Counted from the first letter of the stretch, positions 27,790 to 58,159 are shown. The stretch is DNA of 64,000 nt from Candidatus Undinarchaeota archaeon (GCA_964527545.1 CAZGQF010000001.1:148019-212018); one strand, 5' to 3'. Numbers and translations are program-made. Notes: a model not told the origin generated them from the sequence alone.

Positions 27790-27793
27790 GGGG

Positions 27794-33695: not shown

Positions 33696-33981
33696 CTTAG
33701 ATTTTCGCTTCAGCTTTTTCCACCAAAGGATTTGGGACCCGTAAAGTCACGAAAAGATCCTTGCCCAATCTTTTCTTCTCAAAAAGGGTTCATATTTTGT
33801 CAACAATTTCTTGATCACAAAACCGTCGGCCTCTTTGCCCTCGCAATCCCACATCTGTTCGTCACATCCCAAATGGGAGAAGGCATAGTAGGCCTCCTGT
33901 ATTTCATCTTCCCCGTGGAGTTCGTGATTGTGCGCACCCTATATATTGTTTCGTAGTTGTACAACTGAGCAATACTGATGA

Positions 33982-42482: not shown

Positions 42483-43651
42483 TAGCTCCAACAGGGATAG
42501 CGAAGCTGGACGAGCTCCTTGGGGGAGGGCTCTCCGCAGGTGAGCTGATGCTCTTCTGGAGCGGGCCGGGGATCGACTCGTCGCCCTTCCTCTACACCAT
42601 CATAAATGCCGCACTGGAGAGAAAGGAGAAAGTCGTCTACTTCACGCAGAACAAGGGCGAGGCTGCTGTCAGGAGGGAGATAGAGAGGTACGGCTTCTCG
42701 ACGGAAAACCTCCTCTTCATCGACGGCTACTCCGGACTCATCAACCAGCCCTCCAGCGCCAGGTACGTCGTGAAGAGGGCGAAGGACCCGAAAGACATCA
42801 CCAAGACTCTTGAGAGGGCGATGGAGGCAGGCCCTTCGCTCGTCGCCTTCGACTCCCTCTCCAGCCTCGTCGACGTCTGCGGCGAGAAAGCTCTGGAAGA
42901 GGTTGAAAAGTGGAAGAGGCTGCTCGAGGAGAAGGGGGCGGCTGCAGTCTTCCTCTTCACGGAGTGGCCCTACAATGAAAAGCTGCTCGAGATGGTAGGA
43001 GAGACTGCAGACACGATAGTCAGACTCGGTGCAGTCGAGAAGGAGGTCATCCACCAGAGGTTCTTCACGGTTGTCAAGAGGGACGGCAGCTGGGTCGACA
43101 GGGCAGGCGTCCCCTTTGAGATAGCCTCGCCGGGCGGCCTCCGCATAAGATTGCCCAAGATAGTGGTGACAGGGCCGGAGGGGAGCGGCAAGAGCACTTT
43201 CATACGCTCCGCCAGCAACTACTTTGTCGGAGCTGAAAGGGCGGGGACGACAGTGGGGATAGACTACGGAAAGGTCGACTACCACGGTTTCCGCGTCTCC
43301 CTCTTCGGGACGCCCAGCCACAAAAGGTTCGACGCCATACTGCCAGTGGTGGGGGCGGGCGCCATGGGAGCGATAGTCCTTGTCGACGCCACCCGGCCCG
43401 AGACATTACCCCACGCCGACATCTTCATCGAGAAGGCGGGACTGGAGGCGGTTCCCAGGATAGTGGTCTCCAACCACACAGGCCTCCCCGGCGCGCTCAA
43501 GCCTGAAAAGATAAGAAAGAAGATGGGGTTGAAAGGGGACACCCCTCTCATCGCGCTCACTGAAAGAGAGAAGAAGGGCGGCGAGCCGGCAGCCATGGAG
43601 ACCAAGGAGATCCACAAGGTGCTGGACGCCCTCTTCGAACAGGTGGTCTGA
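42479..43651 (+). CDS. fusion protein: KaiC-like domain (degenerate P-loop) plus C-terminal P-loop GTPase-like domain
   Basis: N-terminal GIAKLDELLGGGLSAGELMLFWSGPGIDSSPF has no Lys in the P-loop. C-terminal VVTGPEGSGKSTFI (G1), TTVGIDYG (switch I Thr), LFGTPS (G3-like), then a 116-aa tail. Start overlaps the upstream stop (ATGA). Confidence 0.55.
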   Translation: MIAPTGIAKLDELLGGGLSAGELMLFWSGPGIDSSPFLYTIINAALERKEKVVYFTQNKGEAAVRREIERYGFSTENLLFIDGYSGLINQPSSARYVVKRAKDPKDITKTLERAMEAGPSLVAFDSLSSLVDVCGEKALEEVEKWKRLLEEKGAAAVFLFTEWPYNEKLLEMVGETADTIVRLGAVEKEVIHQRFFTVVKRDGSWVDRAGVPFEIASPGGLRIRLPKIVVTGPEGSGKSTFIRSASNYFVGAERAGTTVGIDYGKVDYHGFRVSLFGTPSHKRFDAILPVVGAGAMGAIVLVDATRPETLPHADIFIEKAGLEAVPRIVVSNHTGLPGALKPEKIRKKMGLKGDTPLIALTEREKKGGEPAAMETKEIHKVLDALFEQVV

Positions 43652-44002
43652 ATGGAAAGGAAAAAGGACAGGATAAAAGGGATGCTCTCCAAGCTTGTCA
43701 GGGAGGAGGGTCTGGACGGGGCAGTGCTAATCTCGCGCGACGGGCTGGTGATAGTGACGGAAGGGAAGGAACTGGACGCCGTCGCCGCCATGACAGCAGT
43801 CGGCGTCGCCTCCCTCGAGACTGCGGCAAGCGAATGGAAGCTCGGACCTGTAGAGAAGGTGGAAGTGGAGACGCCTCAGCACATGATGGTGGTGGCCGAT
43901 GCCGGGCCAGAGGCGGTATTGGCTGTCGCAGTGAAGAAGGGGAGAGACGTCTCTGAGAAACTGAAAGGGGCAGGCAAGGAGATAGAGAAGGTGCTGGGCT
44001 GA
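43652..44002 (+). CDS. Roadblock/LC7 (MglB-like) domain protein
   Basis: 116 aa. GAVLISRDGLVIV...MTAVGVASLE...MVVADAGPEAVLAVAV follows the alpha-beta-alpha Roadblock pattern. Starts 1 nt after the GTPase-fusion stop. Confidence 0.7.
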   Translation: MERKKDRIKGMLSKLVREEGLDGAVLISRDGLVIVTEGKELDAVAAMTAVGVASLETAASEWKLGPVEKVEVETPQHMMVVADAGPEAVLAVAVKKGRDVSEKLKGAGKEIEKVLG

Positions 44003-44467
44003 ATGGCCATCAAGATCGACGTCGAGAAATACTCGCCAATCGCCAAGTTCCTCGGCCTCTCCGCCCTCGTCCTCGTTTTCCTCGCCTTCTTCAAGAGCCC
44101 GCCTCCGCCTGAAGAGTACGACGAAAGGTGCTTCTACGACCACTGCGTCGAGAGGTGCGGGGAGATGGAGTACCGCTTCGGCCGGTTCGACTACGGGGAG
44201 AGGGTGAGGTGCTTCTGCAAGACCAACATAACTGAGATCTCCGTCCAGCTCTACAGCCTGGACGGAAGCGAGTGCCCTCCAGTGACGAGGGACAGGAGGT
44301 GCGACGAGAGCTTCTGCGAAGAGACCTGCATGAAAGACGAGGGCTTCCTTCCCAACCACTCCTCCCTCGTCCTGGAGGACGGCTGGTACGTCTGCATCTG
44401 CCGCGACATGGATGTTGGCTGGTACGAGGAGGCCTACCACGTGGAGGCCTTTAAGTGCTCTTCCTGA
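44003..44467 (+). CDS. membrane-anchored Cys-rich extracytoplasmic protein
   Basis: N-terminal TM (FLGLSALVLVFLAFF), then 14 Cys in 120 aa (CFYDHCVERCGEMEY...CFCK...CDESFCEETC...). Start overlaps the Roadblock stop. Confidence 0.4.
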   Translation: MAIKIDVEKYSPIAKFLGLSALVLVFLAFFKSPPPPEEYDERCFYDHCVERCGEMEYRFGRFDYGERVRCFCKTNITEISVQLYSLDGSECPPVTRDRRCDESFCEETCMKDEGFLPNHSSLVLEDGWYVCICRDMDVGWYEEAYHVEAFKCSS

Positions 44468-44494
44468 AAGAAGTATTAATACTGCAAAGCGCTG

Positions 44495-47400
44495 TTGAAG
44501 GTCATGCGGGCCCAGGCAGCTCTGGAGTACCTCGTGATAGTTGGCATGATGCTCGCAATCCTCATCCCCGCCTTCTGGTACTCGCTCCGCACCTCGCAGC
44601 AGACTCTCGACCTGCGCCAGACAAAAGACGCAGCCCAGAAGGTGGCGAGGACGGCGGACACTGTCTACGCCCTCGGGCCGGGCTCGAGGATGTATGCCCG
44701 GATACGCCTCCCAGCCACTGTTGAGGACGAGCAGGTCGGAAACAACACCGTCCTCTTCCGCGTCGACGTCGGCCAGGGGCCGCAGGACATCTTCGAGCTG
44801 ACCAAGGGGGACGTGATAGGCGTGCTGCCTGAAGAGCGGGGAGAACACCGCGTACTTGTGAAGATGCTTGAGAGCGGCATCGTCCAGATAGGGGAGGCGA
44901 TCTCCTTGTCGCCCGACCCTTTCGAGGCGACCATAGCTCCCGGCGCTTGGAACGACTCCCTCTTCAACCTCTCCTCCAACGTCGACTACACAGTCTTCTC
45001 ACTCTCGCCCTCAATCTCGGGCGAGATAGAGAGCTGGGGGGTGATTGGGGCGGCGGACGCCCTGGTCTCATCGCTTTCCCCATACGGCTGGGACCTCTTC
45101 GACCTCAACATCTCCGTCCCGCCTTCACAGGCGGCCGGCACCTACGACGGCACGCTTCTCGTTTCCTCCAACCAGAGCGAGGCGACCTCCGCGATACAGA
45201 TCACAGTGCCTTCCGTGCTCAACTACCTCTTCATCGACATCTACGGCTATGAGATGGTGGGCGACATCGGCTTCGTGGTCTCCGGCGACCATCTCTCGCA
45301 GGACGAGAGGGAGGTTCTTGACTGGCTTGAGAGCGAGGAGAGCGGCGAAGGCTACCTCTGGGACTACGACATCATCTCAGACTCGCCCCCCTCCTCTCTC
45401 CGCAACCACTCCGCAGTCCCCCAGAGCTGGGAGGCGACCAGCGGCGGGAGCGGCTACTCCGAAGTCGTCTCGAGCGATGACATCTACGCGACCGCCACTG
45501 TCGCCCAGTACGCTACGGAGAACTTGACAGTCCACTTCCCTCCGCTCGGTCTCGAGAAAGACCCTGACAGCGTCAACTTCACGGCTGAGTACAGGATGAG
45601 CGCCACTGCAGGCTCCCCCTCCCAGGGCGAGTCCCAAGTCGACTCAATGGACGACGTATCGGACTGGAGCGAGGAGTACGGCGCGACCAACGGCGACTTC
45701 ACCACCGACTCGGGCACAAAGCAGGAGGGGACTGCCTCCATGGAGATAAGCTATGACTTCCCGGCGCCCGGCCCGTCCTCGAGCGAGGAGCTGACAGACG
45801 GCGGCTCGATCTCAGGGCCCTCCTCCGGCAGGATAACGGGCGGCGACCACACAGACACCCACTCCACGACAGACGGCGACTACTACTACCTCGGCTACGA
45901 GGTCAACGGCAACTGGAGGAGGAGGAACGGCTGGATGGAGCTGGAGTACGACATCTCTAGCCTGGGCATCGACCCGTCAGACCTGACAGACATCACTCTC
46001 GACGCCGACTTCTGCCACTCTGGGGACGAGACGTCGCCGGCCTGCGGACAGGGCGACGCGATGGAGGGCTTCCTCTGGGGCAGCCAGCTTGTCCAGGTCT
46101 ACGACCACGCCAACTCTGAATGGGACTCGCTCGGCTCCCTCTCCGTCAACACTGGAAGCGACGCGGAGCAGAGCGGGAGCTGGTCGGCATCATCGCCGCT
46201 CTCCAACTATGTCAGCGGCAGCGACACCGTCGACGTCAGGTTCGAGGTCGACTTCTACCTCGCCTGGACCTACGACGCCGTGCTCCTCTTGGACTACGTC
46301 CCCCTCTCACTCACATGGTCTGGCGGTTCGGAGACGCTCGACGAGTACGTCATCAAGAAGAGCTTCTCCCAGGAGGACTGGACAGGCTCCCAGAACCTCT
46401 CTGTCTGGGTCTACGGCGACGCCAACGGCGAGGACATCACGCTCAACATCACCGACTCCGGCGGGGGGAGCTATGAGTGGACGCCGCTCGACGTGAACTG
46501 GAGCGGCTGGCAGTGGAAAAAGTTCGACCTTTCCGGGACGAGCGGCGTCGACCTGTCGTCTGTCAACGGCGTCAAAATCAAGCTGGAAGAGACGGCGGCA
46601 GGCGACAACCCGTCCGGCACTCTCTACCTCGACGACCTCCGCAGGTTCTACACCGCGGGGGGCGGAAACTTCTTTTGCGACCTTCTCTGCCATGACGGCT
46701 CCTCCTGGACCGAGGTGGCGCCAGGGCTGGCCCAGACGTCAGACACCACCCAGCTCTGGGACGTGACCGCCTGCCTCTCGACAAAGGAGGAGGCAAACGA
46801 CGCAGACCTCAAGTTCTCCTGCTACAACGAGATCTCTTCCGGCCAGACGTTCTACCTCGACTACTCCCGGCTCGACGCCTCCTATCTCGGCCTGGCGTCA
46901 GGCGACGCTGAGAGCTGGAACACGTCGACCGGCGACTCAGGCTCGTCTGAAATCCAGTCAAGCAACGACGTCTACGCAGATGAGGAGATAACGCCGGAAG
47001 GGACGGAGAAGCTCGAAATCGACTTCCCAGACCTCGGCGTGACTGGCGCTCCCTTCTCTGTCAACACCACAGTGGAATACAGGTACAGCGACGTAGCCGA
47101 GGGAGGGAGGGAAGGCGGAAGCGACGTGGTCGACTATCTCAACCTCTTCCCCTCAGACAACCCAGTCAACGTCCAGCTCAACCAGCCCTTCAACCTGACA
47201 GTCACCCTCTGGGACCAGCAGGGCGATCCCGTGAGCGGGAAGGAGAGCTACTTCTCGGTCAACAGCATCAAGGACGACAACGGGGCCGCTGCCGCCTTCT
47301 CGACACAGCCCGCTCTCGAGTCGGAGCCAGGGAAGTACGCCATCGAGATAACTATGACCTCCGGGAACGACGGAGCGACCTACTACGTCAACGGCGAGTA

Positions 47401-48838
47401 CCTGGAGGGGAGCGTGCCCGACAGGTACCAGATGTGGTGGCACGGGACAGTCAACCTCAACGAGAGCGCCAAGACGGGCGTGGCCTGGGTCTTCCTGCCG
47501 GAGACTGACTTCGTGACGCTTCCCTCGACCGGCGGGACCATCAACCTCAAGCTCTACTGCATCGACCAGACAAGCTCCCCGCTCAACTCCCTCTCGACCA
47601 CAGACTTCAAGATCTCCAATGTCAAGAGCGAGACGGGGAGCGCAGTGGGCGGCTGGAGCCAGGGGACTGTCACTTTCGAAGGCGACGGCATCTACAAAAT
47701 ACCTATCACGTTCTCCTCCCTCCCTGAGGGCGAAAACCTCTTCCTAAGGGGGAACTGGAAAGAGCTGAACAAGGAGATCGACTTCGGCGCCTCTTTCTTC
47801 GTCAACTCGTCAGATCCATACGCCCCCGCGCCAGACAACCCCTACGTGCCAGGCTCTCCGGCGGCCGGCCTTGAGTGTGAGCTGGAGTGCAGGGGAGAGG
47901 GCGGCTGGTCTTCACTCGGCCCCCTCCCCCAGAACGACAGCGACACTCTCGCGACCTTCTCACTCGACTCCTGCGTCTCCACACAGGCCATCGCCAACGA
48001 CATCCACACCCGCTTCAACTGCACCAACCACTTCTCCGACAACGCAACGCTCTACGTCGACTACGCCAACGTCAGCGTCGGCTATGTCGGCGAGGAGAGC
48101 TGGAATGAACTGAACGAGACAGACCTCTGCGGCTACGGGGCGATAATGGTGGGAGAGCACGAGAGCTCGCTCGACGCGGCGCTCCTCGACTTCCTCGACG
48201 ACTGCGGCTGCGTGATGCTTGTGGGAGAGGCGGCCGCCTCCGCCCCTGTCTCTCTCGGATACGCCAACTCGAGCTTCTCAGGGCTCAACTCCACGCTCTA
48301 CGTGGTCGACGACTCAAACTACGTGACGGCCAACTACTCCAACTCCTCGCTCGTCTCCGTCTACTCGCAAAGCGACATGATGTGGGGGTCGGACGCAGAC
48401 GGCGTTCTCGCCACCGCCGAGGGCAACACTCTCGGCGAGGACGGCAGATTGATGTACTACGGCGTCAGGACGCAGCACCTCTCTTCAGACGGAAACAACA
48501 CTCTGACCCGCTTCGTGGACAGGTGCCTCTCCAAGTCGGTTACGCCAGGCACTCTCGAAGAGAAGAGCGATTTCAGGAAAAACGAGGTCATCGTCTACCG
48601 CATCTCCCTCAGAGACCAGGGCCTCTCTCCCGCAGACTCAAGCGACGTCGACTCGTGGGTCTGGATGGCGAACGGGACGCTGGCCTACCAGAGACTCGAT
48701 GCCTCGACGTCCGGGGGCGCCCTCCAGGAGAGCTACACCATTCCCTCCAGCGGGCCGTCCGGGACGTGGACAGTCAACGCGACCGCCGCAGGGCCGTACT
48801 CCTCTGTCCAGAACTCCACGACATTCGAGGTCGCATAG
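44495..48838 (+). CDS. giant (1447 aa) pilin-headed surface protein / putative adhesin, N-glycosylation sequon-rich
   Basis: N-terminus MKVMRA/QAALEYLVIVGMMLAILIPAF is a class III signal peptide. The rest is low in charged and high in S/T/N/D/G residues, with dozens of N-x-S/T sequons. No TM elsewhere. Confidence 0.6.
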   Translation: MKVMRAQAALEYLVIVGMMLAILIPAFWYSLRTSQQTLDLRQTKDAAQKVARTADTVYALGPGSRMYARIRLPATVEDEQVGNNTVLFRVDVGQGPQDIFELTKGDVIGVLPEERGEHRVLVKMLESGIVQIGEAISLSPDPFEATIAPGAWNDSLFNLSSNVDYTVFSLSPSISGEIESWGVIGAADALVSSLSPYGWDLFDLNISVPPSQAAGTYDGTLLVSSNQSEATSAIQITVPSVLNYLFIDIYGYEMVGDIGFVVSGDHLSQDEREVLDWLESEESGEGYLWDYDIISDSPPSSLRNHSAVPQSWEATSGGSGYSEVVSSDDIYATATVAQYATENLTVHFPPLGLEKDPDSVNFTAEYRMSATAGSPSQGESQVDSMDDVSDWSEEYGATNGDFTTDSGTKQEGTASMEISYDFPAPGPSSSEELTDGGSISGPSSGRITGGDHTDTHSTTDGDYYYLGYEVNGNWRRRNGWMELEYDISSLGIDPSDLTDITLDADFCHSGDETSPACGQGDAMEGFLWGSQLVQVYDHANSEWDSLGSLSVNTGSDAEQSGSWSASSPLSNYVSGSDTVDVRFEVDFYLAWTYDAVLLLDYVPLSLTWSGGSETLDEYVIKKSFSQEDWTGSQNLSVWVYGDANGEDITLNITDSGGGSYEWTPLDVNWSGWQWKKFDLSGTSGVDLSSVNGVKIKLEETAAGDNPSGTLYLDDLRRFYTAGGGNFFCDLLCHDGSSWTEVAPGLAQTSDTTQLWDVTACLSTKEEANDADLKFSCYNEISSGQTFYLDYSRLDASYLGLASGDAESWNTSTGDSGSSEIQSSNDVYADEEITPEGTEKLEIDFPDLGVTGAPFSVNTTVEYRYSDVAEGGREGGSDVVDYLNLFPSDNPVNVQLNQPFNLTVTLWDQQGDPVSGKESYFSVNSIKDDNGAAAAFSTQPALESEPGKYAIEITMTSGNDGATYYVNGEYLEGSVPDRYQMWWHGTVNLNESAKTGVAWVFLPETDFVTLPSTGGTINLKLYCIDQTSSPLNSLSTTDFKISNVKSETGSAVGGWSQGTVTFEGDGIYKIPITFSSLPEGENLFLRGNWKELNKEIDFGASFFVNSSDPYAPAPDNPYVPGSPAAGLECELECRGEGGWSSLGPLPQNDSDTLATFSLDSCVSTQAIANDIHTRFNCTNHFSDNATLYVDYANVSVGYVGEESWNELNETDLCGYGAIMVGEHESSLDAALLDFLDDCGCVMLVGEAAASAPVSLGYANSSFSGLNSTLYVVDDSNYVTANYSNSSLVSVYSQSDMMWGSDADGVLATAEGNTLGEDGRLMYYGVRTQHLSSDGNNTLTRFVDRCLSKSVTPGTLEEKSDFRKNEVIVYRISLRDQGLSPADSSDVDSWVWMANGTLAYQRLDASTSGGALQESYTIPSSGPSGTWTVNATAAGPYSSVQNSTTFEVA

Positions 48839-48874
48839 AACATCAGATAAATATCAGCGGAGAGTCTCCCTGGC

Positions 48875-49252
48875 ATGGCAGGACAGAGCTCTCTTGAAAG
48901 CTTGGTCAGCATAGGGTTCATGCTCTTCCTCTTCACCTCCACCCTTGCAGTCGCCTACCAGAAGGAAAGGGAGACATCGCGAGTTGGGGAGTTCCTGGCC
49001 AACCGGACCGACTGCGACGCAATCGCCCTTGAGGTGGCCGCGGTCTTCACGAGCGGGGAAGGAACGAGGACCGTCAGGAAGATCGGCAGGAGAGCGGAGG
49101 TCTACGGCGATGCAGGCCAGATAGTGGTGGGCGACGTCTTCTGCCTGACCATTGCCAACGTCACCAACGGCACCCACAGCAGCTTCACGCTGGAGGAGGG
49201 CGAAGTGGAGATCCTCTCCCTTGGCAGGGAGGTGAGAGTAAGGAATGTCTAG
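48875..49252 (+). CDS. minor pilin-like protein (class III signal peptide MAG/QSSLESLVSIGFMLFLF)
   Basis: 125 aa. Prepilin-like N-terminus with Q+1 and E+5. Confidence 0.5.
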   Translation: MAGQSSLESLVSIGFMLFLFTSTLAVAYQKERETSRVGEFLANRTDCDAIALEVAAVFTSGEGTRTVRKIGRRAEVYGDAGQIVVGDVFCLTIANVTNGTHSSFTLEEGEVEILSLGREVRVRNV

Positions 49253-49718
49253 GGGACAGTCCGTGATGCTCGACTTCCTGCTGGCCGCCTTCGTCTTCAG
49301 CGTCGTCTTCTCAGCAGTGATGCTCTCCCTCCGCAACGTCCAGGAGACCTTCGACGCGGAAGAGAGGAGGTGGAGGATACAGAGGGGTGCCATACAGGCG
49401 GCCGACGTCCTTGTGAAGAGCAGGGGTGTGCCCTTCAACTGGAATGAAAGAGAGACAAGGCTTCCCGGCCTCAAGTCGATGGGGCGTTCCCTGGAGAGCG
49501 GCAAGCTCTCCGCCTTCGAAGGCCTCGACTATGAGGAGACGAAGGAGATGCTCGGGCTGGAAGGCCTGGAGTACAGAGTAGAAGTGAAGGGCAACGAGAC
49601 CTCCATGAGCATGGGAAGGCCGGAGAGCGGCGACCTGCGCGTCGCATCGACAAGGGTAGCCCTCCATAACGGCGAGCCCGTCTTCCTCAAAGTCACAGTC
49701 TGGGAGGGTAAAGGATGA
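49245..49718 (+). CDS. minor pilin-like protein (MSRG/QSVMLDFLLAAFVFSVVF)
   Basis: 157 aa. Overlaps the upstream gene by 8 nt. Prepilin-like N-terminus. Confidence 0.5.
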   Translation: MSRGQSVMLDFLLAAFVFSVVFSAVMLSLRNVQETFDAEERRWRIQRGAIQAADVLVKSRGVPFNWNERETRLPGLKSMGRSLESGKLSAFEGLDYEETKEMLGLEGLEYRVEVKGNETSMSMGRPESGDLRVASTRVALHNGEPVFLKVTVWEGKG

Positions 49719-50158
49719 GCAGGGGCTATGTCTTCAGCTACGACGCGGCGCTGGGGACGCTCCTCGCCATAATCATACTCTGGGCGGTCCTCTGGGAGCT
49801 CCGACTGCCCGGCGTCCTCTCGGAGGTCCAGGTCGTGCGGAGGGCCAACGACGCCCTCGAGGTCCTCATAGAGGGTGGGACCATGGAAAGCATGGAAGAA
49901 GGGACGATTGAGGAGGGGATGGAAAAGCTCCTCCCCCGGAACTACCGCTTTCGCCTCCTCGTCTCTTCCCACTCCCACTCTGGCAGCGGCTTCGAAGTTG
50001 AAGAGAGCGTGAGCGTGGGAGATAATCTGCCGCTGGAGAGGCTCGACCCAGAGACCGCGACGCCGCTCCCCTTCAGAACGGAGAGGACTTTCGTGACCCT
50101 CTCCGGCAACGAAATAGAGTCCTACCACCGGGCGACGATGTGGGTGTGGCTGGAATGA
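49715..50158 (+). CDS. minor pilin-like protein (MSRG/YVFSYDAALGTLLAIIIL)
   Basis: 147 aa. ATGA overlap with the upstream gene. Prepilin-like N-terminus. Confidence 0.45.
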   Translation: MSRGYVFSYDAALGTLLAIIILWAVLWELRLPGVLSEVQVVRRANDALEVLIEGGTMESMEEGTIEEGMEKLLPRNYRFRLLVSSHSHSGSGFEVEESVSVGDNLPLERLDPETATPLPFRTERTFVTLSGNEIESYHRATMWVWLE

Positions 50159-50952
50159 GCAGGGGTATACTCTTCACAGTCAGCCTTACTCTCATCTCGC
50201 TGGTCGTCTTCTCCTTCGCCTCCACGATAATGGGCGGCTACGAAGAGAAGCGGGGAGAGGAGGCCCAGCTTTTGGTCGTGGAGAGGGTGGGCAGGACTTA
50301 CGACAACCTCGAATGGAACGTGAGGGAGATCTTCTCCACCAGCGGTGTGGAGACCGCCTTCTACGGAGACGTGGTCTCTTTCACTGAAGAGCTCCCCAAC
50401 GAAGAGTCCGTTGACTTCGTCCAGAACGTCGAGCGCTACGCGGAGTTTGCGGAGAAAAAGGGCGTCGATCTGGAGACGGACGAGATGACGGAGTATCTCA
50501 CCCTCAGGGTGGAGCCATACGGAGGCCTCTACTCGCACGAAGACTATGGCGGCAATGATCTCTTCTTCAGCTCCCCCCAGACTCCAGAGCTCTACCGATT
50601 CCACATCACCCTCTCAGACGGCGGCCTCCAGCGGATAGACTGGGATCCGTACGAGTCGGGAAGCCTCCCCGTCAACATCTATGTCCAGGGACAGCAGTCC
50701 GGAAACGAAACAAGGCTTATTAACCCCTCTGGGCTCACTGTGGCAAACGTAACGCTTAACGGCAACAGGGGGGTCATAAGCATCCGTTTTGAGGGCGGGA
50801 ACATGACAGCGACCAGCTACGTCAGCAGCACTGTGGAGATTCAGACCAACGTTACAGTGGATGAAGTCTCCAAAATCGTCCTCCCTGGAGCGCTGAAAGT
50901 GTGGGTGCCCGGGACGGGGGCCAGCAGGAACAGCACTGCGAGGGTGGTGTGA
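50140..50952 (+). CDS. minor pilin-like protein (MSRG/ILFTVSLTLISLVVFSF), sequon-rich
   Basis: 270 aa. Overlaps the upstream gene by 19 nt. Prepilin-like N-terminus. Confidence 0.45.
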   Translation: MGVAGMSRGILFTVSLTLISLVVFSFASTIMGGYEEKRGEEAQLLVVERVGRTYDNLEWNVREIFSTSGVETAFYGDVVSFTEELPNEESVDFVQNVERYAEFAEKKGVDLETDEMTEYLTLRVEPYGGLYSHEDYGGNDLFFSSPQTPELYRFHITLSDGGLQRIDWDPYESGSLPVNIYVQGQQSGNETRLINPSGLTVANVTLNGNRGVISIRFEGGNMTATSYVSSTVEIQTNVTVDEVSKIVLPGALKVWVPGTGASRNSTARVV

Positions 50953-52544
50953 TGGCCAACTCCAAGAAGAGGGAGAACCTGGAGAAGCTGAAGGAGGGGA
51001 TCAAGGATGAGCCCTCCGGTAAAAGCGGATTCAGGCTCGAGAAGCTCTTCGACATAGGGACCTATGCAAGCCTCGTGGAGAGGTTCACCTCACACGAGGA
51101 GCCGGACCCGAAACCCAGGAAGCTGAAGCTGAAAGAGACGGTAGAGAACTTCTTCGACAAGAACGCAAAACCCACCATAGAGGCGGTCGAGTCAGGGAGG
51201 TTCGACAAGGAGGAGCTTGAGGAGCTTCTAGATCACGAGAGAGAAAACAAAGAAAGGAAGACCGTTTTGGGGGTGATAGAGTCGAAGCTGGGGGAGATGG
51301 AGACCGTCGAGGACTTCTTCGACAAGAACGCTAAGCCCACCATAGAGGCGGTCGAGTCAGGGAGGTTCGACAAGGAGGAGCTAGAAGAGCTTCTAGAGCA
51401 CGAAAAAGAAGAGAAAGAGAGAAAGACAGTCGTCTCGGCGATAGAGTCGAAGCTGGAGGAGATGGAGACCGTCGAGGACTTCTTCGACAAGAATGCGGAG
51501 CCCACCATAGAGGCGGTCGAGTCAGGGAGGTTCGACAGAAAAGAGCTGAAAGAGCTGCTTGAACACGAGAGGGAGGGGAAGGAGAGAAAGACAGTCGTCT
51601 CGGCGATAGAGTCGAAGCTGGGGGAGATGGAGACCGTCGAGGACTTCTTCGACAAGAACGCTAAGCAGATCATAGAGGCCGTGGAGGGGGGCAGGTTCAG
51701 CGACGAGGAGCTCGAAGAATTGCTGAGGCACGAGAGAGAGGGGAAGGAGAGAAAGACCGTTTTGGGGGTGATAGAGGCGGTCATCGGCGAGCTGCCCCCT
51801 GAAGCTGAAGAGAGAATTGGCAGGATACGCTACCAGGTCGAAGTGGAGAGGGGGAGGAGAGAAGGCAAGACGGAAGTCGAAGTCGTTGACATCGAGGAGA
51901 GAGAAGAGTGGCGCGGGGGCATAGGCGGCCACAAGGCAGAGGTCGCAGAGGAAGGGAAAGAGAACTTCGTCGCGCGGATCTTCGAGGAAAGAAAAGAGAG
52001 AAAGGAAGGTCTCCTCTCCAAGCTGGTCAGAAAGGTGAAGAGTCTCTTCGGCCTCCCCAAGGAAGAAAAGGAAGAGCTCGAGGAGGTGGAAGGGGGGATC
52101 ATCAGGCCGGGCGCGGAGGTGGTGGTCAAGCTCGAGGAGGTTGAGGGCTGGGAGGAGAGCGGCAGGAAGAGTGAAGGCGTGGAGGAGCAAGGAGAGAGGG
52201 CTGAGGTAGGAGAGTCGTCAAAACAGGAGGCAGAATGTGCTGATGAACAGGCGAACAGGAGAAAGGTGGAGGAGTGGGACGTCAGCGACATCTCCCTCTC
52301 TGAAGCGAGCGAGAAGCTGGTCACTGGGATCGACAAGCTTTTCTTCATAGTCAAGAAAAAGGAAGGGGTGGGGCTCGAGGCGGCGGCCGGAATGCTGGGC
52401 GTTACGCGCGGCAAAGTAGACGAATGGGCAAAGATACTGGAAGACGAGGGGCTCATCACAATTCACTATCCGGCGGTGGGCGAGCCCAAGCTGGTCCCAA
52501 AGAACGAGACAAGGGGTGGGAGCCACGAAATCGAAGGAGATTGA
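50952..52544 (+). CDS. cytoplasmic repeat protein (4.x copies of a 55-aa K/E-rich repeat) with C-terminal winged-helix-like domain
   Basis: ATG at 50952 overlaps the upstream TGA. Repeats ETVEDFFDKNAKPTIEAVESGRFDKEELEELLEHEREGKERKTVVSAIESKLGEM. C-terminus VTGIDKLFFIVKKKEGVGLEAAAGMLGVTRGKVDEWAKILEDEGLITIHYP. No TM. Confidence 0.5.
   Translation: MANSKKRENLEKLKEGIKDEPSGKSGFRLEKLFDIGTYASLVERFTSHEEPDPKPRKLKLKETVENFFDKNAKPTIEAVESGRFDKEELEELLDHERENKERKTVLGVIESKLGEMETVEDFFDKNAKPTIEAVESGRFDKEELEELLEHEKEEKERKTVVSAIESKLEEMETVEDFFDKNAEPTIEAVESGRFDRKELKELLEHEREGKERKTVVSAIESKLGEMETVEDFFDKNAKQIIEAVEGGRFSDEELEELLRHEREGKERKTVLGVIEAVIGELPPEAEERIGRIRYQVEVERGRREGKTEVEVVDIEEREEWRGGIGGHKAEVAEEGKENFVARIFEERKERKEGLLSKLVRKVKSLFGLPKEEKEELEEVEGGIIRPGAEVVVKLEEVEGWEESGRKSEGVEEQGERAEVGESSKQEAECADEQANRRKVEEWDVSDISLSEASEKLVTGIDKLFFIVKKKEGVGLEAAAGMLGVTRGKVDEWAKILEDEGLITIHYPAVGEPKLVPKNETRGGSHEIEGD
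51136..51795. repeat. 165-bp tandem direct repeat, 4 full copies plus a partial (51136, 51301, 51466, 51631)
   Basis: agaccgtcgaggacttcttcgacaagaa recurs exactly every 165 bp. Copies are about 85-95% identical, in-frame and coding. Confidence 0.85.
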
Positions 52545-54051
52545 CCGCTACGAGCTCGAGGTCGACAACGTCAAGGCAGAGATAAGAATCGTGGCCGGGG
52601 AAGACCTCGTCACACTCTACAAAGTGACAGTCAAGAAGCCGGACGTTGCCACGCGCGCGCTGCTCAACGAAGTCCGCTCCGAGCTGGTCTCTGAGGTGAG
52701 CTTCGGGGGGAGGGAGATACTCAACCCGGAGGCGATAGAGGAGCTCAAGAAGAAGTTCAAGCAGAAGGCTGAGGAGCTGCTTTCAGAGCACCTTCCCGAC
52801 ATAAAGGAGATCGACAGGGACTTCCTGATAGGCCACCTCCTCCATGAGATGCTCGGGCTCGGGAAGCTGGAGATCATACTGTCCGACCCCGAGCTTGAGG
52901 ACCTCGGCGTCAACTGTGCGGAGGAGCCCATCTGGCTCTACCACAAGAAGTACGGATGGCTGAAGACTGATGTCTACTTGGAGAGCGAGGACGAGATAGA
53001 GAATTTGATGAACATAATCGCCCGCAGGGTGGGGAGGTCGATAACCATCCGGGACCCCCTCCTGGATGCCCACCTCCTGAAAGGCGACCGTGTAAACGCA
53101 ACCCTCTACCCCATCTCCACCAAGGGGAACACCATAACCATCAGGAAGTTCTCGGAGAGGCCCTGGACCATCACAGACTTCCTCCAGAACGGCACGACCA
53201 GCAAGGAGGCCGCGGCCCTCGTCTGGCTGGCCATGCAGTACGAGCTGAACATCCTCATCTCCGGCGGCACCGCCTCCGGCAAGACCAGTTTCCTCAACGT
53301 CTGCATGCCCTTCATACAGCCCAACCACCGCATCGTCTCCATAGAGGACACCCGCGAAATCAAGCTCCCTGATTTCCTCTACTGGACCCCTTTTACCGTG
53401 CGCGAGCCAAACCCTGAGGGAAAGGGCGGAGTAACCATGCTCGAACTCATGGTCAACGCGCTCCGCACCAGGCCGGACAGGATAGTGGTGGGAGAGATAA
53501 GGCGCTCCAGGCAGGCAGAGGTCCTCTTCGAGGCGATGCACACAGGCCACAGCGTCTACTCCACGCTGCACGCCGACACCGCCGCCCAGACGGTGCGCCG
53601 CCTCATAAACCCGCCCATCGAGATACCTGAGACGATGCTGGACTCCGTCCACCTAAACGTGGTCATGTTCAGGGACAGGAGGAGGGGCATCCGCAGGACG
53701 CTGGAGGTTGCCGAGCTGGTCCCCACCGGCGAGATGGGGACGGGCTTCAAGATTAACGACATCTTCAAGTGGAAGCCGCGCGGAGACCGCATAGTCTCCC
53801 ACTCAGACAGCATCAGACTGCTGGAGGAGATAAATCTCCACACCGCAATGACGGAGAAGGAGATAGAAGAGGACATCGAGGAGAAGGAGAGGATTCTCTC
53901 CTGGCTCTCCAGGAACAACATAAAAAACGTCAACGCGGTGGGCAGGACGGTGGCCGAGTACTACAAGGACCACGACATGACAGTCGCCCAGATAGAGAGG
54001 AACGTCTCGCCCGAGAAGCTGCTTGGGGATGAGGTAGAGCTCCATGCCTGA
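52516..54051 (+). CDS. type IV pilus/archaellum assembly ATPase (FlaI/TadA/GspE family)
   Basis: GTG start. Walker A GGTASGKTS, Walker B DRIVVGEIR, His-box TLHAD. N-terminal domain of about 200 aa. Overlaps the downstream membrane gene by 8 nt. Confidence 0.85.
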   Translation: MGATKSKEIDRYELEVDNVKAEIRIVAGEDLVTLYKVTVKKPDVATRALLNEVRSELVSEVSFGGREILNPEAIEELKKKFKQKAEELLSEHLPDIKEIDRDFLIGHLLHEMLGLGKLEIILSDPELEDLGVNCAEEPIWLYHKKYGWLKTDVYLESEDEIENLMNIIARRVGRSITIRDPLLDAHLLKGDRVNATLYPISTKGNTITIRKFSERPWTITDFLQNGTTSKEAAALVWLAMQYELNILISGGTASGKTSFLNVCMPFIQPNHRIVSIEDTREIKLPDFLYWTPFTVREPNPEGKGGVTMLELMVNALRTRPDRIVVGEIRRSRQAEVLFEAMHTGHSVYSTLHADTAAQTVRRLINPPIEIPETMLDSVHLNVVMFRDRRRGIRRTLEVAELVPTGEMGTGFKINDIFKWKPRGDRIVSHSDSIRLLEEINLHTAMTEKEIEEDIEEKERILSWLSRNNIKNVNAVGRTVAEYYKDHDMTVAQIERNVSPEKLLGDEVELHA

Positions 54052-54934
54052 GAGGAAATTCCTGCCAGGCGTCCCCCTTCCGCTGCCTCTCGCCCTGCAA
54101 CTCTCCAAGCCGCTCCTCGGCCTCGCCGAGTCATTGGTAGTCTTCCTCCCCTATTTGAAGCTCAACCTCCAGCAGGCGGAGATAGAGCTCGACCCGCGGG
54201 AGTTCCTGGCAGTGGGGGTGTTCGCCTCTCTTCTCTACTTCCTCGCCTCCGGCTTTATCATCTTCACCTTCAGCTACGTGATGACAGGGGAGGTAATCCT
54301 GTGGCTGCCCGTCGTGGTGGCCCTGCTGTCGGGCGGCGGCGCACTCTTCTACCACCTGGCCGCGCCGCACCTCATCGTCCAGAGGAAGGTCAAGGAGATA
54401 GAGAAGAACCTCCTCTTCAGCATGAGGAGCCTGATGGTCCAGGTATCGAGCGGCGTCCCGCTCTACACCGCCCTCACCACCATAGCCCGCAGCGGATACG
54501 GCAAGGTAAGCGACGAGTTCGCCAAGGCTGTCGACAAGATGGCGACGGGGACACCGCAGGACGTGGCGCTCGGCAAGATAACCCTTGGTAACCCCTCCGT
54601 CTTCTTCCGTAGGGCGATCTGGCAGATAACCAACGGCATGCGCTCCGGCAGCAACATCTCCGAGGTGCTCGACTCCGTGACGGAGAACCTGGCCAGGGAG
54701 CAGTCCATACAGATAAAGAGGTACGGCTCGCAGCTGAACCCCCTCGCCCTGGTCTACATGATAGTAAGCGTCATCGTCCCCGCCCTGGGGATGACCTTCG
54801 TCATAGTGCTCAGCTCCTTCCCTTCGCTGCCCATCCACGAGTACATGCTCTGGGCCTTCCTGGGGCTCCTCGCGGTGGCGCAGTTCATGCTCCTGGGCCT
54901 GATAAAGTCGAGGAGGCCAAACCTGCTGGGGTGA
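54044..54934 (+). CDS. TadB/TadC/FlaJ-like polytopic membrane protein (T2SS-F domain), first half
   Basis: 296 aa. TM-flanked cytoplasmic T2SSF-like domain (LYTALTTIARSGYGKVSDEFAKAVDKMATG...). Confidence 0.75.
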   Translation: MPERKFLPGVPLPLPLALQLSKPLLGLAESLVVFLPYLKLNLQQAEIELDPREFLAVGVFASLLYFLASGFIIFTFSYVMTGEVILWLPVVVALLSGGGALFYHLAAPHLIVQRKVKEIEKNLLFSMRSLMVQVSSGVPLYTALTTIARSGYGKVSDEFAKAVDKMATGTPQDVALGKITLGNPSVFFRRAIWQITNGMRSGSNISEVLDSVTENLAREQSIQIKRYGSQLNPLALVYMIVSVIVPALGMTFVIVLSSFPSLPIHEYMLWAFLGLLAVAQFMLLGLIKSRRPNLLG

Positions 54935-54938
54935 AAGA

Positions 54939-55910
54939 TTGAACTACATAGCAATAGCGAGATGGCTGCCCCCGAAGCTCGGGGAATGGATGAGGAAGTC
55001 TCTTGTCTACGCAGACATCGATGTCAACCCGGAAAAGCTCCTCGGCTTCCTTTCGGTCTTCGGCCTGTCCCTCTCCCTCGCGCTGGCAGCCGACCTCTAT
55101 CTCTTCTTCGGCTTCAACCCCCTGCTAGGCTTCTGCGGCAGTCTCGCCGGATTCTCCCTCCTCTTCTACCTCTTCCTCTTCTTCATGATAGAGAGCAGGT
55201 CCCGCTTCATAGAGAACGTCCTGCCCGACGCCCTCCAGCTGATGAGCAGCAACATAAGGGTGGGCATGACCACCGACAGGGCCTTCCTGCTCAGCGCCCG
55301 CCCCGAGTTCGGACCGCTGGAGAAGGAGATAAGGCGTGTGGGGAAGAAGATCTTTTCGGGAGGCGAGATCGACAAGGAGCTGCTGGCAATGGCAAAGAGG
55401 ATAAGGTCGAACGTCTTCGACAGGACCATCTCCATAATAGTCGAAGGGATCAGGTCGGGCGGCGAGCTGGACAGGATCCTCGTGCAGACCGCCCACGACT
55501 TGAGGCGGCAGGAGAGTGTGAGGAAGGAGATAGAGGCCACCATACTGATGTACTCGGTCCTTGTCTTCATGGGCGTCGGCTTCGCCGCGCCCTTCCTCTT
55601 CGGCGTCTCCAGCTACCTCGCCGAGGTGCTGGGGGAGAGGATGGCCAGCTTCGGCTTCGTGAGGGGGCTTACTCAGACGCTCAACCTGGAAGCGGGCGGC
55701 GCCTCCTTCTCCCCTCAGTCGATAGTGGTCTTCTCTGTCTCATCGCTGACAATGTCAAGCGTCTTCGGGAGCCTCCTGATCGGCCTCATCCAGGAAGGCA
55801 ATGAGAAGGTGGGCGCAAAGTACATACCCGTCTTCCTCACCCTGAGCATCACTCTCTTCTTTTTGACGAGGAAAGTGATGGTAAGCTTCTTCGGACAGCT
55901 CCTCACATGA
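54939..55910 (+). CDS. TadC/FlaJ-like polytopic membrane protein (T2SS-F domain), second half
   Basis: 323 aa. TTG start in the ORF track (alternative ATG at 54990). Second T2SSF-like domain (LQLMSSNIRVGMTTDRAFLLSA...). Different frame from the upstream half. Confidence 0.75.
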   Translation: MNYIAIARWLPPKLGEWMRKSLVYADIDVNPEKLLGFLSVFGLSLSLALAADLYLFFGFNPLLGFCGSLAGFSLLFYLFLFFMIESRSRFIENVLPDALQLMSSNIRVGMTTDRAFLLSARPEFGPLEKEIRRVGKKIFSGGEIDKELLAMAKRIRSNVFDRTISIIVEGIRSGGELDRILVQTAHDLRRQESVRKEIEATILMYSVLVFMGVGFAAPFLFGVSSYLAEVLGERMASFGFVRGLTQTLNLEAGGASFSPQSIVVFSVSSLTMSSVFGSLLIGLIQEGNEKVGAKYIPVFLTLSITLFFLTRKVMVSFFGQLLT

Positions 55911-55911
55911 G

Positions 55912-56355
55912 CTACTCGACTTCGCCCGTGCATTCGCCTATCTCTTCGTGGTCGACGATGCCATCGATTGTGCTGAACTGGAACTTCACTGTCGCTATGT
56001 ACCTCTCGCCTTCGTCAAATCCTGAGAACCCCGAGACGGTGATTATCTCAGACTTTCCGGCGTCGATGGCGTAGTCCGTTGAGTCAGTCTCCGTCTCGCC
56101 CTCTATCACCACCCGCGTCCTGTTGATGTTGACCTTGGCGCCCGCCCCGTTCGCTATCTTGATTATGAAGTCACCGTTGTCCATGAAGGCGTGCTCCCTG
56201 TACTCAAGCTGGTCGAGGCCCACGCACGACTTCTGTGTGTAGGTAGAGGGGTTGAGAATGCCCATTGCGTAGAGTGCGCCGCCAGCTATGAGGATGATTA
56301 TGATGACCCACCCGTAGGTCATCAGGTACTCGAGGGCGCTCTGGCCGCGTCTCAC
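55912..56355 (-). CDS. major pilin-like protein, paralog 1 (MRRG/QSALEYLMTYGWVIIIIL)
   Basis: 147 aa. Class III signal peptide. Tail-to-tail with the TadC-like gene. Confidence 0.7.
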   Translation of the reverse strand: MRRGQSALEYLMTYGWVIIIILIAGGALYAMGILNPSTYTQKSCVGLDQLEYREHAFMDNGDFIIKIANGAGAKVNINRTRVVIEGETETDSTDYAIDAGKSEIITVSGFSGFDEGERYIATVKFQFSTIDGIVDHEEIGECTGEVE

Positions 56356-56401
56356 GGGAGGAATAGCCCCCAGACAGTATTAATGCTTTCCAATGGGGCG
56401 C

Positions 56402-56860
56402 CTACTCGACCTTGCCGGTGCAGCTGCCCCTGTCCACGTGGCCGCTGATACCCCTTCTCACGTCGTAGACGAAGACCACGTCGACTTCGTAGTCGTCGCC
56501 CTCGTTCCATCCCTCGCCGGAGTAGCCGGTTATGGTGAACGTGGCAGACTTGCCTGCGTTTACGTTGGTCGGCGTGGTGTACTCGTGCCAGCAGCAGGTG
56601 CTGTTGGAGTTGGAGAACATGGAGGCGTTTGTCACCTGTATCTTGGCTCCCGCCTCATTTGCAACTCGGATCTTGAAGTCCGAGCCGTCGAAGTAGTGGT
56701 CCTCGTAGCCGAGTGATGTCAAGCCCGTGCAGGTCTTCTGCTGGTACGTGGAGGGGCTGAGCAACCCCATCGCGTAGAGCGAGGAGGCAGCTATCAAAAT
56801 GATTAGCAGGGCCCATCCGTATGTCAGCAGATACTCGAGGGCGCTTTGGCCTTTCCCCAT
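56402..56860 (-). CDS. major pilin-like protein, paralog 2 (MGKG/QSALEYLLTYGWALLIIL)
   Basis: 152 aa. N-terminal 45 aa nearly identical to paralog 3. Sequons NASMFSNSNST. Confidence 0.7.
   Translation of the reverse strand: MGKGQSALEYLLTYGWALLIILIAASSLYAMGLLSPSTYQQKTCTGLTSLGYEDHYFDGSDFKIRVANEAGAKIQVTNASMFSNSNSTCCWHEYTTPTNVNAGKSATFTITGYSGEGWNEGDDYEVDVVFVYDVRRGISGHVDRGSCTGKVE
56641..56779. repeat. segments of paralog 2 with 49-nt and 59-nt blocks identical to paralog 3 (57170-57218, 57250-57308)
   Basis: tcttggctcccgcctcatttgcaactcggatcttgaagtccgagccgtc and aagcccgtgcaggtcttctgctggtacgtggaggggctgagcaaccccatcgcgtagag occur in both genes. Confidence 0.7.
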
Positions 56861-56948
56861 GGAAAAAGACTGCTGTATCGACTATTAATGTTTTGGCAGA
56901 AAAAAGGAAGAGAAGGGAGGCCGGGGCCTCCCGTTCACAGCGTCAGGG

Positions 56949-57389
56949 CTACTCTATCTTGCCCGTGCAGCTGCCCCTCTCCACGTGGTCCTGGATGCCT
57001 CCTGGAATGTCGTAGGTGAACTCCAGGTCGGCGATGTAGTCGTCGCCCTCAGCAAAGCCGGAGAAGCCGGTCACAGTCAGTGTCGCCTGCTTGCCCGCGT
57101 TGATGTTGGTGGGCGTCGAGTAGTTGTACTCCTGCCCTTCAACGGTCACGTTGAACTCGTCCACCTTTATCTTGGCTCCCGCCTCATTTGCAACTCGGAT
57201 CTTGAAGTCCGAGCCGTCAAAGAAGTGGTCTTGGTATCCCAGCGTGACCAAGCCCGTGCAGGTCTTCTGCTGGTACGTGGAGGGGCTGAGCAACCCCATC
57301 GCGTAGAGGGCGGCGGCGGCGACAAGTATAATCACCAGGGCCCATCCGTATGTCATAAGGTACTCTAAAGCGCTCTGGCCTCTTTTCAT
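56949..57389 (-). CDS. major pilin-like protein, paralog 3 (MKRG/QSALEYLMTYGWALVIIL)
   Basis: 146 aa from ATG 57389 (or MPM start at 57395). The long ORF extension to 57590 is a GC artefact. Confidence 0.7.
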   Translation of the reverse strand: MKRGQSALEYLMTYGWALVIILVAAAALYAMGLLSPSTYQQKTCTGLVTLGYQDHFFDGSDFKIRVANEAGAKIKVDEFNVTVEGQEYNYSTPTNINAGKQATLTVTGFSGFAEGDDYIADLEFTYDIPGGIQDHVERGSCTGKIE

Positions 57390-57436
57390 AGGCATTTCCC
57401 GCATTCCCAATATTAATCTCTTCCGGAAAAGGATAA

Positions 57437-58159
57437 ATGCGAAAAGCGGGACTCGTGGCCATGGCGGAGGGAAAAGAGAGGGAAAGGCTCGAAATCGGCA
57501 TTCCCGGAGTCGACGAGCTCGTGGAAGGGGGGATACCGGAGGGAAAGGTGGTCCTTTTGGCAGGCGGGCCGGGGACAGGCAAGTCGACATTCGGCCTCCA
57601 GTGGCTGCTCCATGGTTTCAACGAGTCGGGACAGCCCGGCCTCTACGTATCGCTGGAGCAGGAGCCGGACGAGATGATTGAGGACATGGCAAACTTCAGC
57701 TTCAACATCAAGGAGGCGATCGACCAGAACGGCCTGAAGATGATCAAGTCCGAGCTCTACAAGTTCGAGGCGCTCAAGAACGCAATAGAGAACGGCGTGG
57801 ACGCGATAGGGGCGAAGAGGATAGTCATCGACCCTGTCACTGTGCTCAGCATGTACTGGGAGAGGCCCATACAGGCGAGGAAGGGAATCATAGAGATAGT
57901 CGAGCTGATCAGGACTTTGAACTGCACCGGCTTCCTCCTCTCCGAGGTGAGCGAGATCGCCCAGTACACCACGACCTTCCCGGTCGAAGAGTTCGTCTGC
58001 GACGGCGTCATACTGCTCGGATTCGAGAGGAAGAAGGGCGTCTACGAGAGGTCGCTCGTGGTGAGGAAGCTGAGAGGGAGCAGCCACTCCACTCGCATCT
58101 GCCCCCTGAAGATAACAGAGGACGGCATAGTTGTCTACCCTGAGGAAGAGGTCTTCTAG
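57437..58159 (+). CDS. KaiC/RecA-like ATPase with canonical Walker A (FlaH/ArlH-like)
   Basis: 240 aa. GIPGVDELVEGGIPEGKVVLLAGGPGTGKSTFGLQW. Single KaiC-like domain of the size of archaellum FlaH. Confidence 0.65.
   Translation: MRKAGLVAMAEGKERERLEIGIPGVDELVEGGIPEGKVVLLAGGPGTGKSTFGLQWLLHGFNESGQPGLYVSLEQEPDEMIEDMANFSFNIKEAIDQNGLKMIKSELYKFEALKNAIENGVDAIGAKRIVIDPVTVLSMYWERPIQARKGIIEIVELIRTLNCTGFLLSEVSEIAQYTTTFPVEEFVCDGVILLGFERKKGVYERSLVVRKLRGSSHSTRICPLKITEDGIVVYPEEEVF

Follow-up and report, generated by a model that had tools for sequence, protein, structure and literature searches.

What kind of surface filament is encoded by the pilus-like genes at positions 44495-58159 of a 64,000-nt stretch of DNA from a Candidatus Undinarchaeota archaeon (GCA_964527545.1, CAZGQF010000001.1:148019-212018; the whole stretch is called the window below), and what could such a filament do for the cell that makes it? 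The DPANN archaea in culture are very small cells that depend on a host, and the means by which they find and hold it are largely unknown. Pili-like connections have been seen, but they were never assigned to genes (PMC11329633). A first-pass annotation of the window had proposed a type IV pilus-like system and not an archaellum. This is supported by domain searches, by the lack of matches to archaellum-specific genes, by a pilin model that matches archaeal type IV pili and by synteny in about 20 related loci. We consider it likely that these genes specify a type IV pilus (type IV filament, TFF) without a role in motility, made by a DPANN-type archaeon.

The centre of the locus consists of an assembly ATPase, its membrane platform, three tandem pilin genes and an adjoining KaiC-family ATPase (a slash in the N-terminal motifs marks the predicted cleavage site):

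52516-54051, plus strand: secretion/assembly ATPase, T2SSE (VirB11/FlaI/TadA superfamily; PF00437, E = 7e-37)
54044-54934, plus strand: platform protein equivalent to an N-terminal half, one T2SSF domain, about 4 transmembrane (TM) segments
54939-55910, plus strand: platform protein equivalent to a C-terminal half, one T2SSF domain, about 5 TM segments
55912-56355, minus strand: pilin paralogue 1, 147 aa, RRG/QSALEYL
56402-56860, minus strand: pilin paralogue 2, 152 aa, GKG/QSALEYL
56949-57389, minus strand: pilin paralogue 3, 146 aa, KRG/QSALEYL, the one modelled
57437-58159, plus strand: single-domain KaiC-family ATPase with an intact Walker A motif (Pfam KaiC, E = 3e-58), conserved beside this type of locus

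The T2SSE match confirms the assembly ATPase that had been predicted at 52516-54051, and all four catalytic motifs of the protein (Walker A, Asp box, Walker B, and His box) are preserved. Among solved structures in the PDB it is closest to GspE of A. fulgidus (AfGspE, 2OAP, 244 bits), followed by FlaI (201 bits) and CpaF (154 bits). AfGspE has been placed in Clade 2/arCOG01817 (Makarova et al., 2016, Fig. S4, PMC4858521). The two TadB/TadC-like membrane genes of the first-pass annotation were also recovered by Pfam, with one T2SSF domain (PF00482) apiece (E = 4e-19 and 3e-15). One of them corresponds to the first half and the other to the second half of UpsF/ArlJ, which are encoded by single genes, and the two therefore represent a split platform like that of TadB/TadC. 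The gene at 57437 had been described as a FlaH-like KaiC ATPase, of which the KaiC part stands but the FlaH part does not. The ArlH model NF052589 gives only 49.5 bits against a cut-off of 215, the PDB neighbours of the protein are KaiC, PH0284 and PH0186, and no chain named FlaH or ArlH is present among its 47 PDB matches. Judged from these matches, it is not a FlaH/ArlH orthologue.

The three pilin paralogues have pairwise identities of 46-66%. Among the 127 relatives recovered by a homologue search, nearly all are without a name or called "hypothetical", and the few named ones come from metagenome-assembled genomes (MAGs) of Diapherotrites and Micrarchaeota. None of the 127 has a precomputed Pfam domain. 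In an alignment of 62 homologues the motif GQxALEYLxTYGW is invariant, and many of the aligned proteins have one Cys right after the helix and a second one near the C-terminus. An AlphaFold2 model of paralogue 3, made with the pilin alignment (predicted local distance difference test, pLDDT, 89.6), has a helix at 6-29 followed by a nine-strand sandwich. The best match of this model in the PDB by Foldseek is the archaeal type IV pilus of Pyrobaculum calidifontis (8FK7, E = 1.1e-5, 142 columns), and the P. arsenaticum pilus (6W8U) is ranked sixth. The pilins therefore combine the three features of a filament subunit, i.e., a class III signal, a hydrophobic helix and a globular β domain.

These proteins belong to a large family, here called the GQSALEYLMTYGW pilins. 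A profile search over 1.84 billion representatives gave 9581 members at a cut-off of E <= 1e-3, of which 6154 also pass E <= 1e-10, all counted as cluster representatives at 50% identity. Some members are 330-630 aa long and carry the pilin module together with a large C-terminal extension ("modular pilins", e.g., P0206, P0223, P0249, and P0277). No Pfam or NCBIfam model for such pilins was matched by the members examined, and the genes are therefore routinely labelled "hypothetical". A family model for the GQSALEYLMTYGW pilins would improve the annotation of thousands of MAGs.

Ten prepilin open reading frames (ORFs) had been listed for the window, all with Q at +1 and E at +5. The ORF listing and a motif scan showed that all ten exist where they had been placed, except that one starts at 50155 and not at 50140. 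The strict motif, defined as basic residue(s), G/A, Q+1, E+5 and then a hydrophobic helix, is present in seven of them (7 regular-expression matches in the window compared to 0 in 200 shuffles), whereas those at 49245, 49715, and 50155 carry other motifs. Besides the three tandem pilins ([KR]G/QSALEYL, minus strand), the set comprises:

44495/44504-48838, plus strand: giant class III signal-peptide protein, 1444-1447 aa, MRA/QAALEYL, likely true start ATG 44504
48875-49252, plus strand: minor pilin-like protein, MAG/QSSLESL, with the family N-terminus G/A-QTSLEF conserved
49245-49718, plus strand: minor pilin-like protein, MSRG/QSVMLD (Q+1 kept, D at +6), 13 homologues in related loci
49715-50158, plus strand: minor pilin-like protein, MSRG/YVFSYD (Y+1, D+6), family in related loci
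50155-50952, plus strand: minor pilin-like protein, MSRG/ILFTVS (no acidic residue), start overlapping the preceding stop by 4 nt, family in related loci
9950-10504, minus strand: stand-alone class III signal-peptide protein, 184 aa, MRG/QSSTEYL, distantly related to the three tandem pilins
62468-63355, minus strand: stand-alone class III signal-peptide protein, 295 aa, MRG/QSAMEYL

The variant N-termini are kept per family in related loci, in the forms [KR]G-Q....D, KG-[FWYH]...D, and [KR]G-[VI][IL]FTL. Since they are conserved within their own families, the proteins at 49245, 49715, and 50155 can still be regarded as class-III-like. The protein at 49245 also has a distant match to DUF7287 in Pfam (23.6 bits, below the cut-off of 27), and it is one of the 4 among 23 scanned sequences that match this domain.

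Three further co-directional ORFs of 206, 327, and 632 aa are located at 38-3568 of the window. They have N-termini such as MKG/VYQYVAAAV... and MRRG/LIGLQTIILLL... and contain several Cys residues. They were absent from the earlier list of ten and may be additional surface proteins with a class-III-like signal or a signal anchor. Their [KR]G-hydrophobic N-termini raised the idea of another type IV cluster at this position. It was rejected, as the related pilus loci contain no homologues of these ORFs and Pfam finds no domains in them, and the ORFs stay unassigned.

The giant protein contains 29 N-glycosylation sequons and has weak matches to Ig-like and MG2 domains. Its N-terminal ~250 aa are conserved in related loci. 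A homologue search with its first 300 aa gave no matches, and no DUF2341 match was obtained on the 1447-aa protein. By analogy, it is predicted to be a pilus-borne adhesin.

We scanned one genome per GTDB species with the ATPase. This gave 39 loci with 45-58% identity, most of them labelled Iainarchaeum, Micrarchaeota/Micrarchaeia, Woesearchaeota, Nanoarchaeia or simply "archaeon". When the window proteins were used in tblastn searches of these loci, one gene order recurred: KaiC, a big class III protein, minor pilins, an HTH-like (helix-turn-helix) domain, the ATPase, two platform genes, 1-3 pilins, and KaiC. The synteny is found in about 20 related loci from Iainarchaeota, Micrarchaeota, Woesearchaeota, and Nanoarchaeia MAGs, and with this recurring gene order the locus is a conserved pilus locus of DPANN archaea. 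Judged from the relatives of its proteins, the host looks like a DPANN archaeon of an Iainarchaeota/Micrarchaeota-like kind. The euryarchaeal framing of the first-pass annotation was not upheld, because the nearest relatives of the locus are DPANN MAGs and not Euryarchaeota, and processing by EppA is therefore only an extrapolation.

The ATPase genes of several related Iainarchaeota/Micrarchaeota MAGs (L030, L032, L035, L038, and L039) are broken by in-frame insertions after residues ~279 and/or ~308; the reading frame was checked for L030, L035, and L038. The insertions are ~1.5 kb in most cases, while L038 has two, of which the one at the ~279 site is only ~0.5 kb. They are probably inteins, and one of them ends ...HN/T. 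The window ATPase has no such insertion.

Prepilin processing calls for a peptidase, and the earlier statement that no A24 prepilin peptidase is encoded in the 64 kb was corroborated in several ways. Pfam found none, either on the locus or on further ORFs that were unassigned or ambiguous, a scan of the window for the G.GD.K motif and TM segments gave no candidate, and tblastn of a candidate peptidase fragment from related locus L024 against the window returned nothing. L024 is the sole related locus with a peptidase candidate nearby, and a cluster-borne peptidase is almost never seen in the relatives.

The genes from 41505 to 55910 form a run of fifteen co-directional genes that abut or overlap by 1-8 nt. 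The sole gaps, of ~30 nt each, are found ahead of 44495 and ahead of 48875. The cluster annotated at 44495-58159 is real, but the operon reaches further upstream and includes a regulator module at 41505-44002. Promoter-like boxes precede the giant gene and the pilins:

44475-44481, plus strand: TATA-like ATTAATA box located 29 nt ahead of ATG 44504
56378-56384, 56883-56889, and 57411-57417, minus strand: ATTAATA boxes, 28-29 nt upstream of the three pilin genes

ATTAATA is found at only four places in the 64 kb, all of them pilus promoters, where 0.38 matches are expected by chance; the four places correspond to 5 strand matches, as the copy at 44474-44481 is palindromic. The box, 28-29 nt ahead of four start codons, is a common TATA-like element, and this spacing implies that the mRNAs are probably leaderless. 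It also makes ATG 44504 (MRA/QAALEYL) a more likely start of the giant gene than TTG 44495. With a shared box and apparently leaderless mRNAs, the pilin genes and the operon of the giant protein are probably co-regulated.

The following assembly pathway can be proposed. Prepilins with very short class III signal peptides (MRRG, MGKG, MKRG, MRA, MAG, and MSRG) would insert into the membrane by their N-terminal helix, and an A24-family aspartyl prepilin peptidase (PibD/FlaK-like or EppA-like), encoded outside the 64 kb, would cut after G/A. The components for the next step are seen in the locus, and its mechanism is taken from the superfamily of type IV pili, Tad pili and archaella: a hexameric T2SSE ATPase would drive a platform of two half-size T2SSF proteins, which would lift pilins from the membrane and add them to a helical fibre. 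Its major subunits would be the three paralogues of ~14 kDa, which consist of an N-terminal helix and an Ig-like β-sandwich. By analogy with bacterial minor pilins and pseudopilins, the four small operon proteins could form a priming or tip complex. This complex might display the glycosylated giant protein (1444 aa, class III) as an adhesin that would plausibly attach the cell to surfaces or host cells, and we infer an adhesive function of the pilus. The adjoining KaiC ATPase (57437) could, speculatively, modulate the assembly ATPase.

Several observations weigh against this interpretation. No prepilin peptidase is seen in the window, and processing is thus only predicted. None of the class III proteins reaches the gathering threshold of the Pfam model Class_IIIsignal (PF04021, DUF361/UPF0333; 23.7 bits), whether full-length proteins or 35-aa N-termini are used: the giant protein has 20.7 bits and the others 8.9 bits at most or no match. 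With a single sub-threshold match, formal PF04021 membership is not claimed. The adhesive role and the tip position of the giant protein come from analogy alone, and its domain matches are weak. The DPANN placement is drawn from the relatives of the locus proteins and not from a marker-gene phylogeny. Finally, on the basis of the PDB references with which it was compared (Clade 2 AfGspE, FlaI, and CpaF), the ATPase may belong to any of the published archaeal TFF systems 1, 2 or 4A.

The same genes could also be read in other ways. An archaellum with divergent components, i.e., a rotary swimming organelle, might be suspected since the FlaI model (NF058587) is by name the best NCBIfam match of the ATPase, with 302 bits, and since a KaiC/RecA-family ATPase adjoins the locus just as ArlH lies beside ArlI. 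However, the FlaI score lies far below the equivalog cut-off of 550, the ArlH score of the KaiC protein is also below its own (49.5 against 215), and the ATPase is nearer to the non-archaellum AfGspE than to FlaI. The platform is encoded by two genes where ArlJ is a single one, and the globular domain of the pilins is small (146 aa overall). Pfam searches of the locus and the other unassigned window ORFs gave no match to archaellin (PF01917), ArlC/D/E, ArlF/G or ArlX, in agreement with the earlier statement that FlaC/D/E/F/G are absent. With these below-cut-off scores, the split platform and no archaellum-specific genes found, the archaellum reading was rejected as most improbable.

A short pseudopilus, bindosome-like or secretion-type system would display class III proteins (the giant one and those at 9950 and 62468) and form no long adhesive fibre. 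Many class III proteins of varied sizes would fit such a system, a 2026 preprint (bioRxiv 10.64898/2026.04.22.720090) proposes TFF machineries "functionalised" by class III signal-peptide (SPIII) proteins, and there is a weak match to the NCBIfam model BasE (135 bits). This score is far under the cut-off of 1000, though, and Pfam found no substrate-binding-protein domains in the class III proteins of the window. Three small paralogous pilins in tandem, each behind its own strong promoter-like box, form a typical set of major subunits of a filament, and their fold resembles the subunits of long filaments, which makes this reading unlikely. A DNA-uptake (competence) or retractile twitching pilus, which would not be an adhesin carrier, was judged to be slightly less likely still. 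Type IV filaments have such roles elsewhere, DPANN archaea depend on scavenging, and groundwater studies tie the pili of ultra-small cells to DNA uptake and attachment (PMC9938205). Against this, neither ComEC/DprA nor a second (retraction) ATPase was found in the locus or the window ORFs scanned, and the giant protein with its Ig-like domains points to surface binding. A non-motility type IV pilus therefore remains our preferred reading.

The genes around this pilus system include a module of putative regulators (41505-44002) and two further genes:

41505-42482, plus strand: KaiC-like pseudo-ATPase of the DUF7504/DUF7090 type (Pfam KaiC 1.3e-20, DUF7504 6.7e-15)
42479-43651, plus strand: KaiC-like pseudo-ATPase fused to a small Ras/Arf-like GTPase, overlapping the upstream gene by 4 nt
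43652-44002, plus strand: Roadblock/LC7 protein (Pfam Robl_LC7 6.6e-12, matches to roadblock proteins in the PDB)
44003-44467, plus strand: Cys-rich protein that has a single TM segment at its N-terminus and is not conserved among the related loci
50952-52544, plus strand: E/K-rich cytoplasmic protein that contains a 55-aa sequence repeated four times in tandem and an HTH-like domain at its C-terminus (Tandem Repeats Finder period 165, 3.8 copies)

The Walker A motif of the pseudo-KaiC at 41505 is degenerate (APPKAETH), i.e., its P-loop is destroyed. The KaiC::GTPase fusion belongs to a family with 31 homologues of 387-405 aa from DPANN archaea, Thermoplasmata, Methanoregula, and Methanofollis. 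None of the 19 aligned members retains the Walker A lysine in its N-domain. In the GTPase, the motifs G1, G3 (GTPGQ), and G4 (NKxD) are conserved family-wide, and G1 is intact in the window protein. Its GTPase domain (43148-43651) and that of its closest relative P0123 have GTPSH and NHTG in place of the G3 and G4 motifs, which suggests altered nucleotide specificity or hydrolysis. An AF2 model of the fusion (pLDDT 87) has an N-domain that superposes on PH0284/KaiC. In the PDB, the closest sequences to the GTPase are Rab/Arl proteins, and MglA is not among the 60 PDB matches listed; the idea of a GTPase that resembles MglA in sequence was rejected.

The Roadblock protein is a probable partner of the fusion GTPase. 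The pairing of the two recurs in the related loci L012 and L044, with the fusion gene of L012 located ~7 kb from the pilus ATPase, and another MAG has a Roadblock gene on either side of the fusion. In Methanomicrobiales, a pseudo-KaiC and fusion pair is found 7-9 kb from Pilin_N/DUF7289 genes; the pair is conserved, while the link to pilins is loose. A metagenome scan with the fusion gave two short contigs only. KaiC-family and Roadblock proteins have already been linked to archaeal type IV pilus loci (Makarova et al., 2016, PMC4858521).

A possible link to the machinery is the 55-aa E/K-rich repeat VEDFFDKNAKPTIEAVESGRFDKEELEELLEHE..RKTVVSAIESKL. Four copies are present in the protein encoded at 50952-52544 (51135-51757) and a fifth at the C-terminus of the pseudo-KaiC (42336-42479), with 50-62% identity, and the repeat was seen only in the lineage of the window. 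The HTH-like domain of the 50952 protein is also conserved in related loci, where it is encoded directly ahead of the ATPase. Searches of the PDB and Pfam with the HTH-like C-terminus and the 55-aa repeat gave nothing significant. The repeat may be a docking module between regulator and machinery, and the upstream pseudo-KaiC/fusion/Roadblock module could, speculatively, act as an on/off or positioning switch for the pilus. A wider idea, which we regard as doubtful, is that the pilus operon is hard-wired to an uncharacterised archaeal switch made up of the DUF7504 pseudo-KaiC, the KaiC::GTPase with an altered guanine-specificity motif and Roadblock. Tied to the 50952 protein via the 55-aa repeat, this switch would decide when or where the DPANN cell extends its adhesin-bearing pilus for host capture. 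If true, it would be an archaeal functional analogue of the MglA/MglB control of bacterial type IV pili. The module is in any case a testable candidate regulator.

Other parts of the window were noted in passing. Surface-protein genes clustered at 24353-29377 code for a DUF4139 protein, a 676-aa protein with a transglutaminase core, an M48 peptidase and a DsbA-like thioredoxin anchored in the membrane. The latter could form the Cys pair common to many of the pilins. Transglutaminase-family peptidases have been linked to Clade 1 type IV pili (Makarova et al., 2016, PMC4858521). Two adjacent tRNA genes on the minus strand at 23785-23990 span 88 and 103 nt, and the longer one may contain an intron. 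The region 29400-33950, which surrounds a tRNA gene (32660-32730), is lower in GC (0.53-0.56) and in GC at third codon positions (0.55-0.68), and its ORFs at 29903-31009 and 32853-33695 have no Pfam match. It may be integrated foreign DNA.

Taken as a whole, the locus provides a complete-looking parts list for a pilus type that is conserved among MAGs of Iainarchaeota, Micrarchaeota, and their relatives. The parts are three major and four minor pilins, a giant class III protein as the candidate adhesin, the assembly ATPase with its split platform, and the KaiC ATPase. Further anatomy is added by the promoter box, the N-terminal classes of the minor pilins and a large pilin family with no Pfam or NCBIfam match among the members examined. 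Among known systems, the bacterial Tad/Flp pilus (CpaF, TadB, and TadC) shares the split platform and a CpaF-related ATPase (154 bits), but the window pilins are not of the Flp type, there is no secretin, TadZ or TadV, and the window ATPase is nearer to archaeal enzymes. The archaellum (ArlB, ArlI, ArlJ, ArlH, and ArlF/G) has the same ATPase/platform superfamily and a RecA/KaiC-family ATPase beside its motor genes, yet every archaellum-specific test was negative for the window locus. The upstream module resembles the MglA/MglB switch of Myxococcus type IV pili by analogy only, in that a small Ras-superfamily GTPase lies beside Roadblock beside type IV pilus genes. Unlike MglA, the window GTPase is fused to a KaiC-like pseudo-ATPase, has its best PDB matches in Rab/Arl and carries altered G3 and G4 motifs (GTPSH and NHTG).

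The Epd pilus, or Clade 1/System 1, of Methanococcus maripaludis, Methanobacteriales, and Thermococcales is similar in having two platform genes, Q+1 and E+5, large class III proteins and DPANN hosts, and the operon has at least five minor-pilin-like genes, as in that system. TFF loci with two platform genes have been reported in DPANN, which are listed among the System 1 hosts (bioRxiv 10.64898/2026.04.22.720090). The window locus differs in that the 9-TM EppA peptidase and a MinD/FleN ATPase were not found in the window, DUF2341 is not matched, Class_IIIsignal is not reached, and the window pilins are 146-152 aa with a β-sandwich, in contrast to ~70-aa subunits without a globular domain. The euryarchaeal Clade 2/System 2 (AfGspE AF0659-type ATPase; Haloferax PilB/PilC) is similar in other respects: AfGspE is the best solved match of the window ATPase, several small class-III-like proteins lie upstream of the ATPase, a KaiC-family ATPase and a large adhesin-like protein are linked to the locus, and one minor pilin has a sub-threshold match to DUF7287. 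In contrast to System 2, the window pilins are not PilA/Pilin_N (PF07790, no match by Pfam) but a separate GQSALEYLMTYGW family, the host is a DPANN archaeon, and the platform has two genes. System 2 was described with a single platform gene (Sivabalasarma and Albers, 2026, preprint, bioRxiv 10.64898/2026.04.22.720090), whereas many Clade 2 loci have two tadC genes (Makarova, Koonin and Albers, 2016, PMC4858521). The window locus thus mixes features of System 1 and Clade 2/System 2 without the hallmarks of either. It leaves the current understanding of archaeal type IV filaments standing and is a well-preserved example of a known machine, to which an unusual set of regulator genes is attached.

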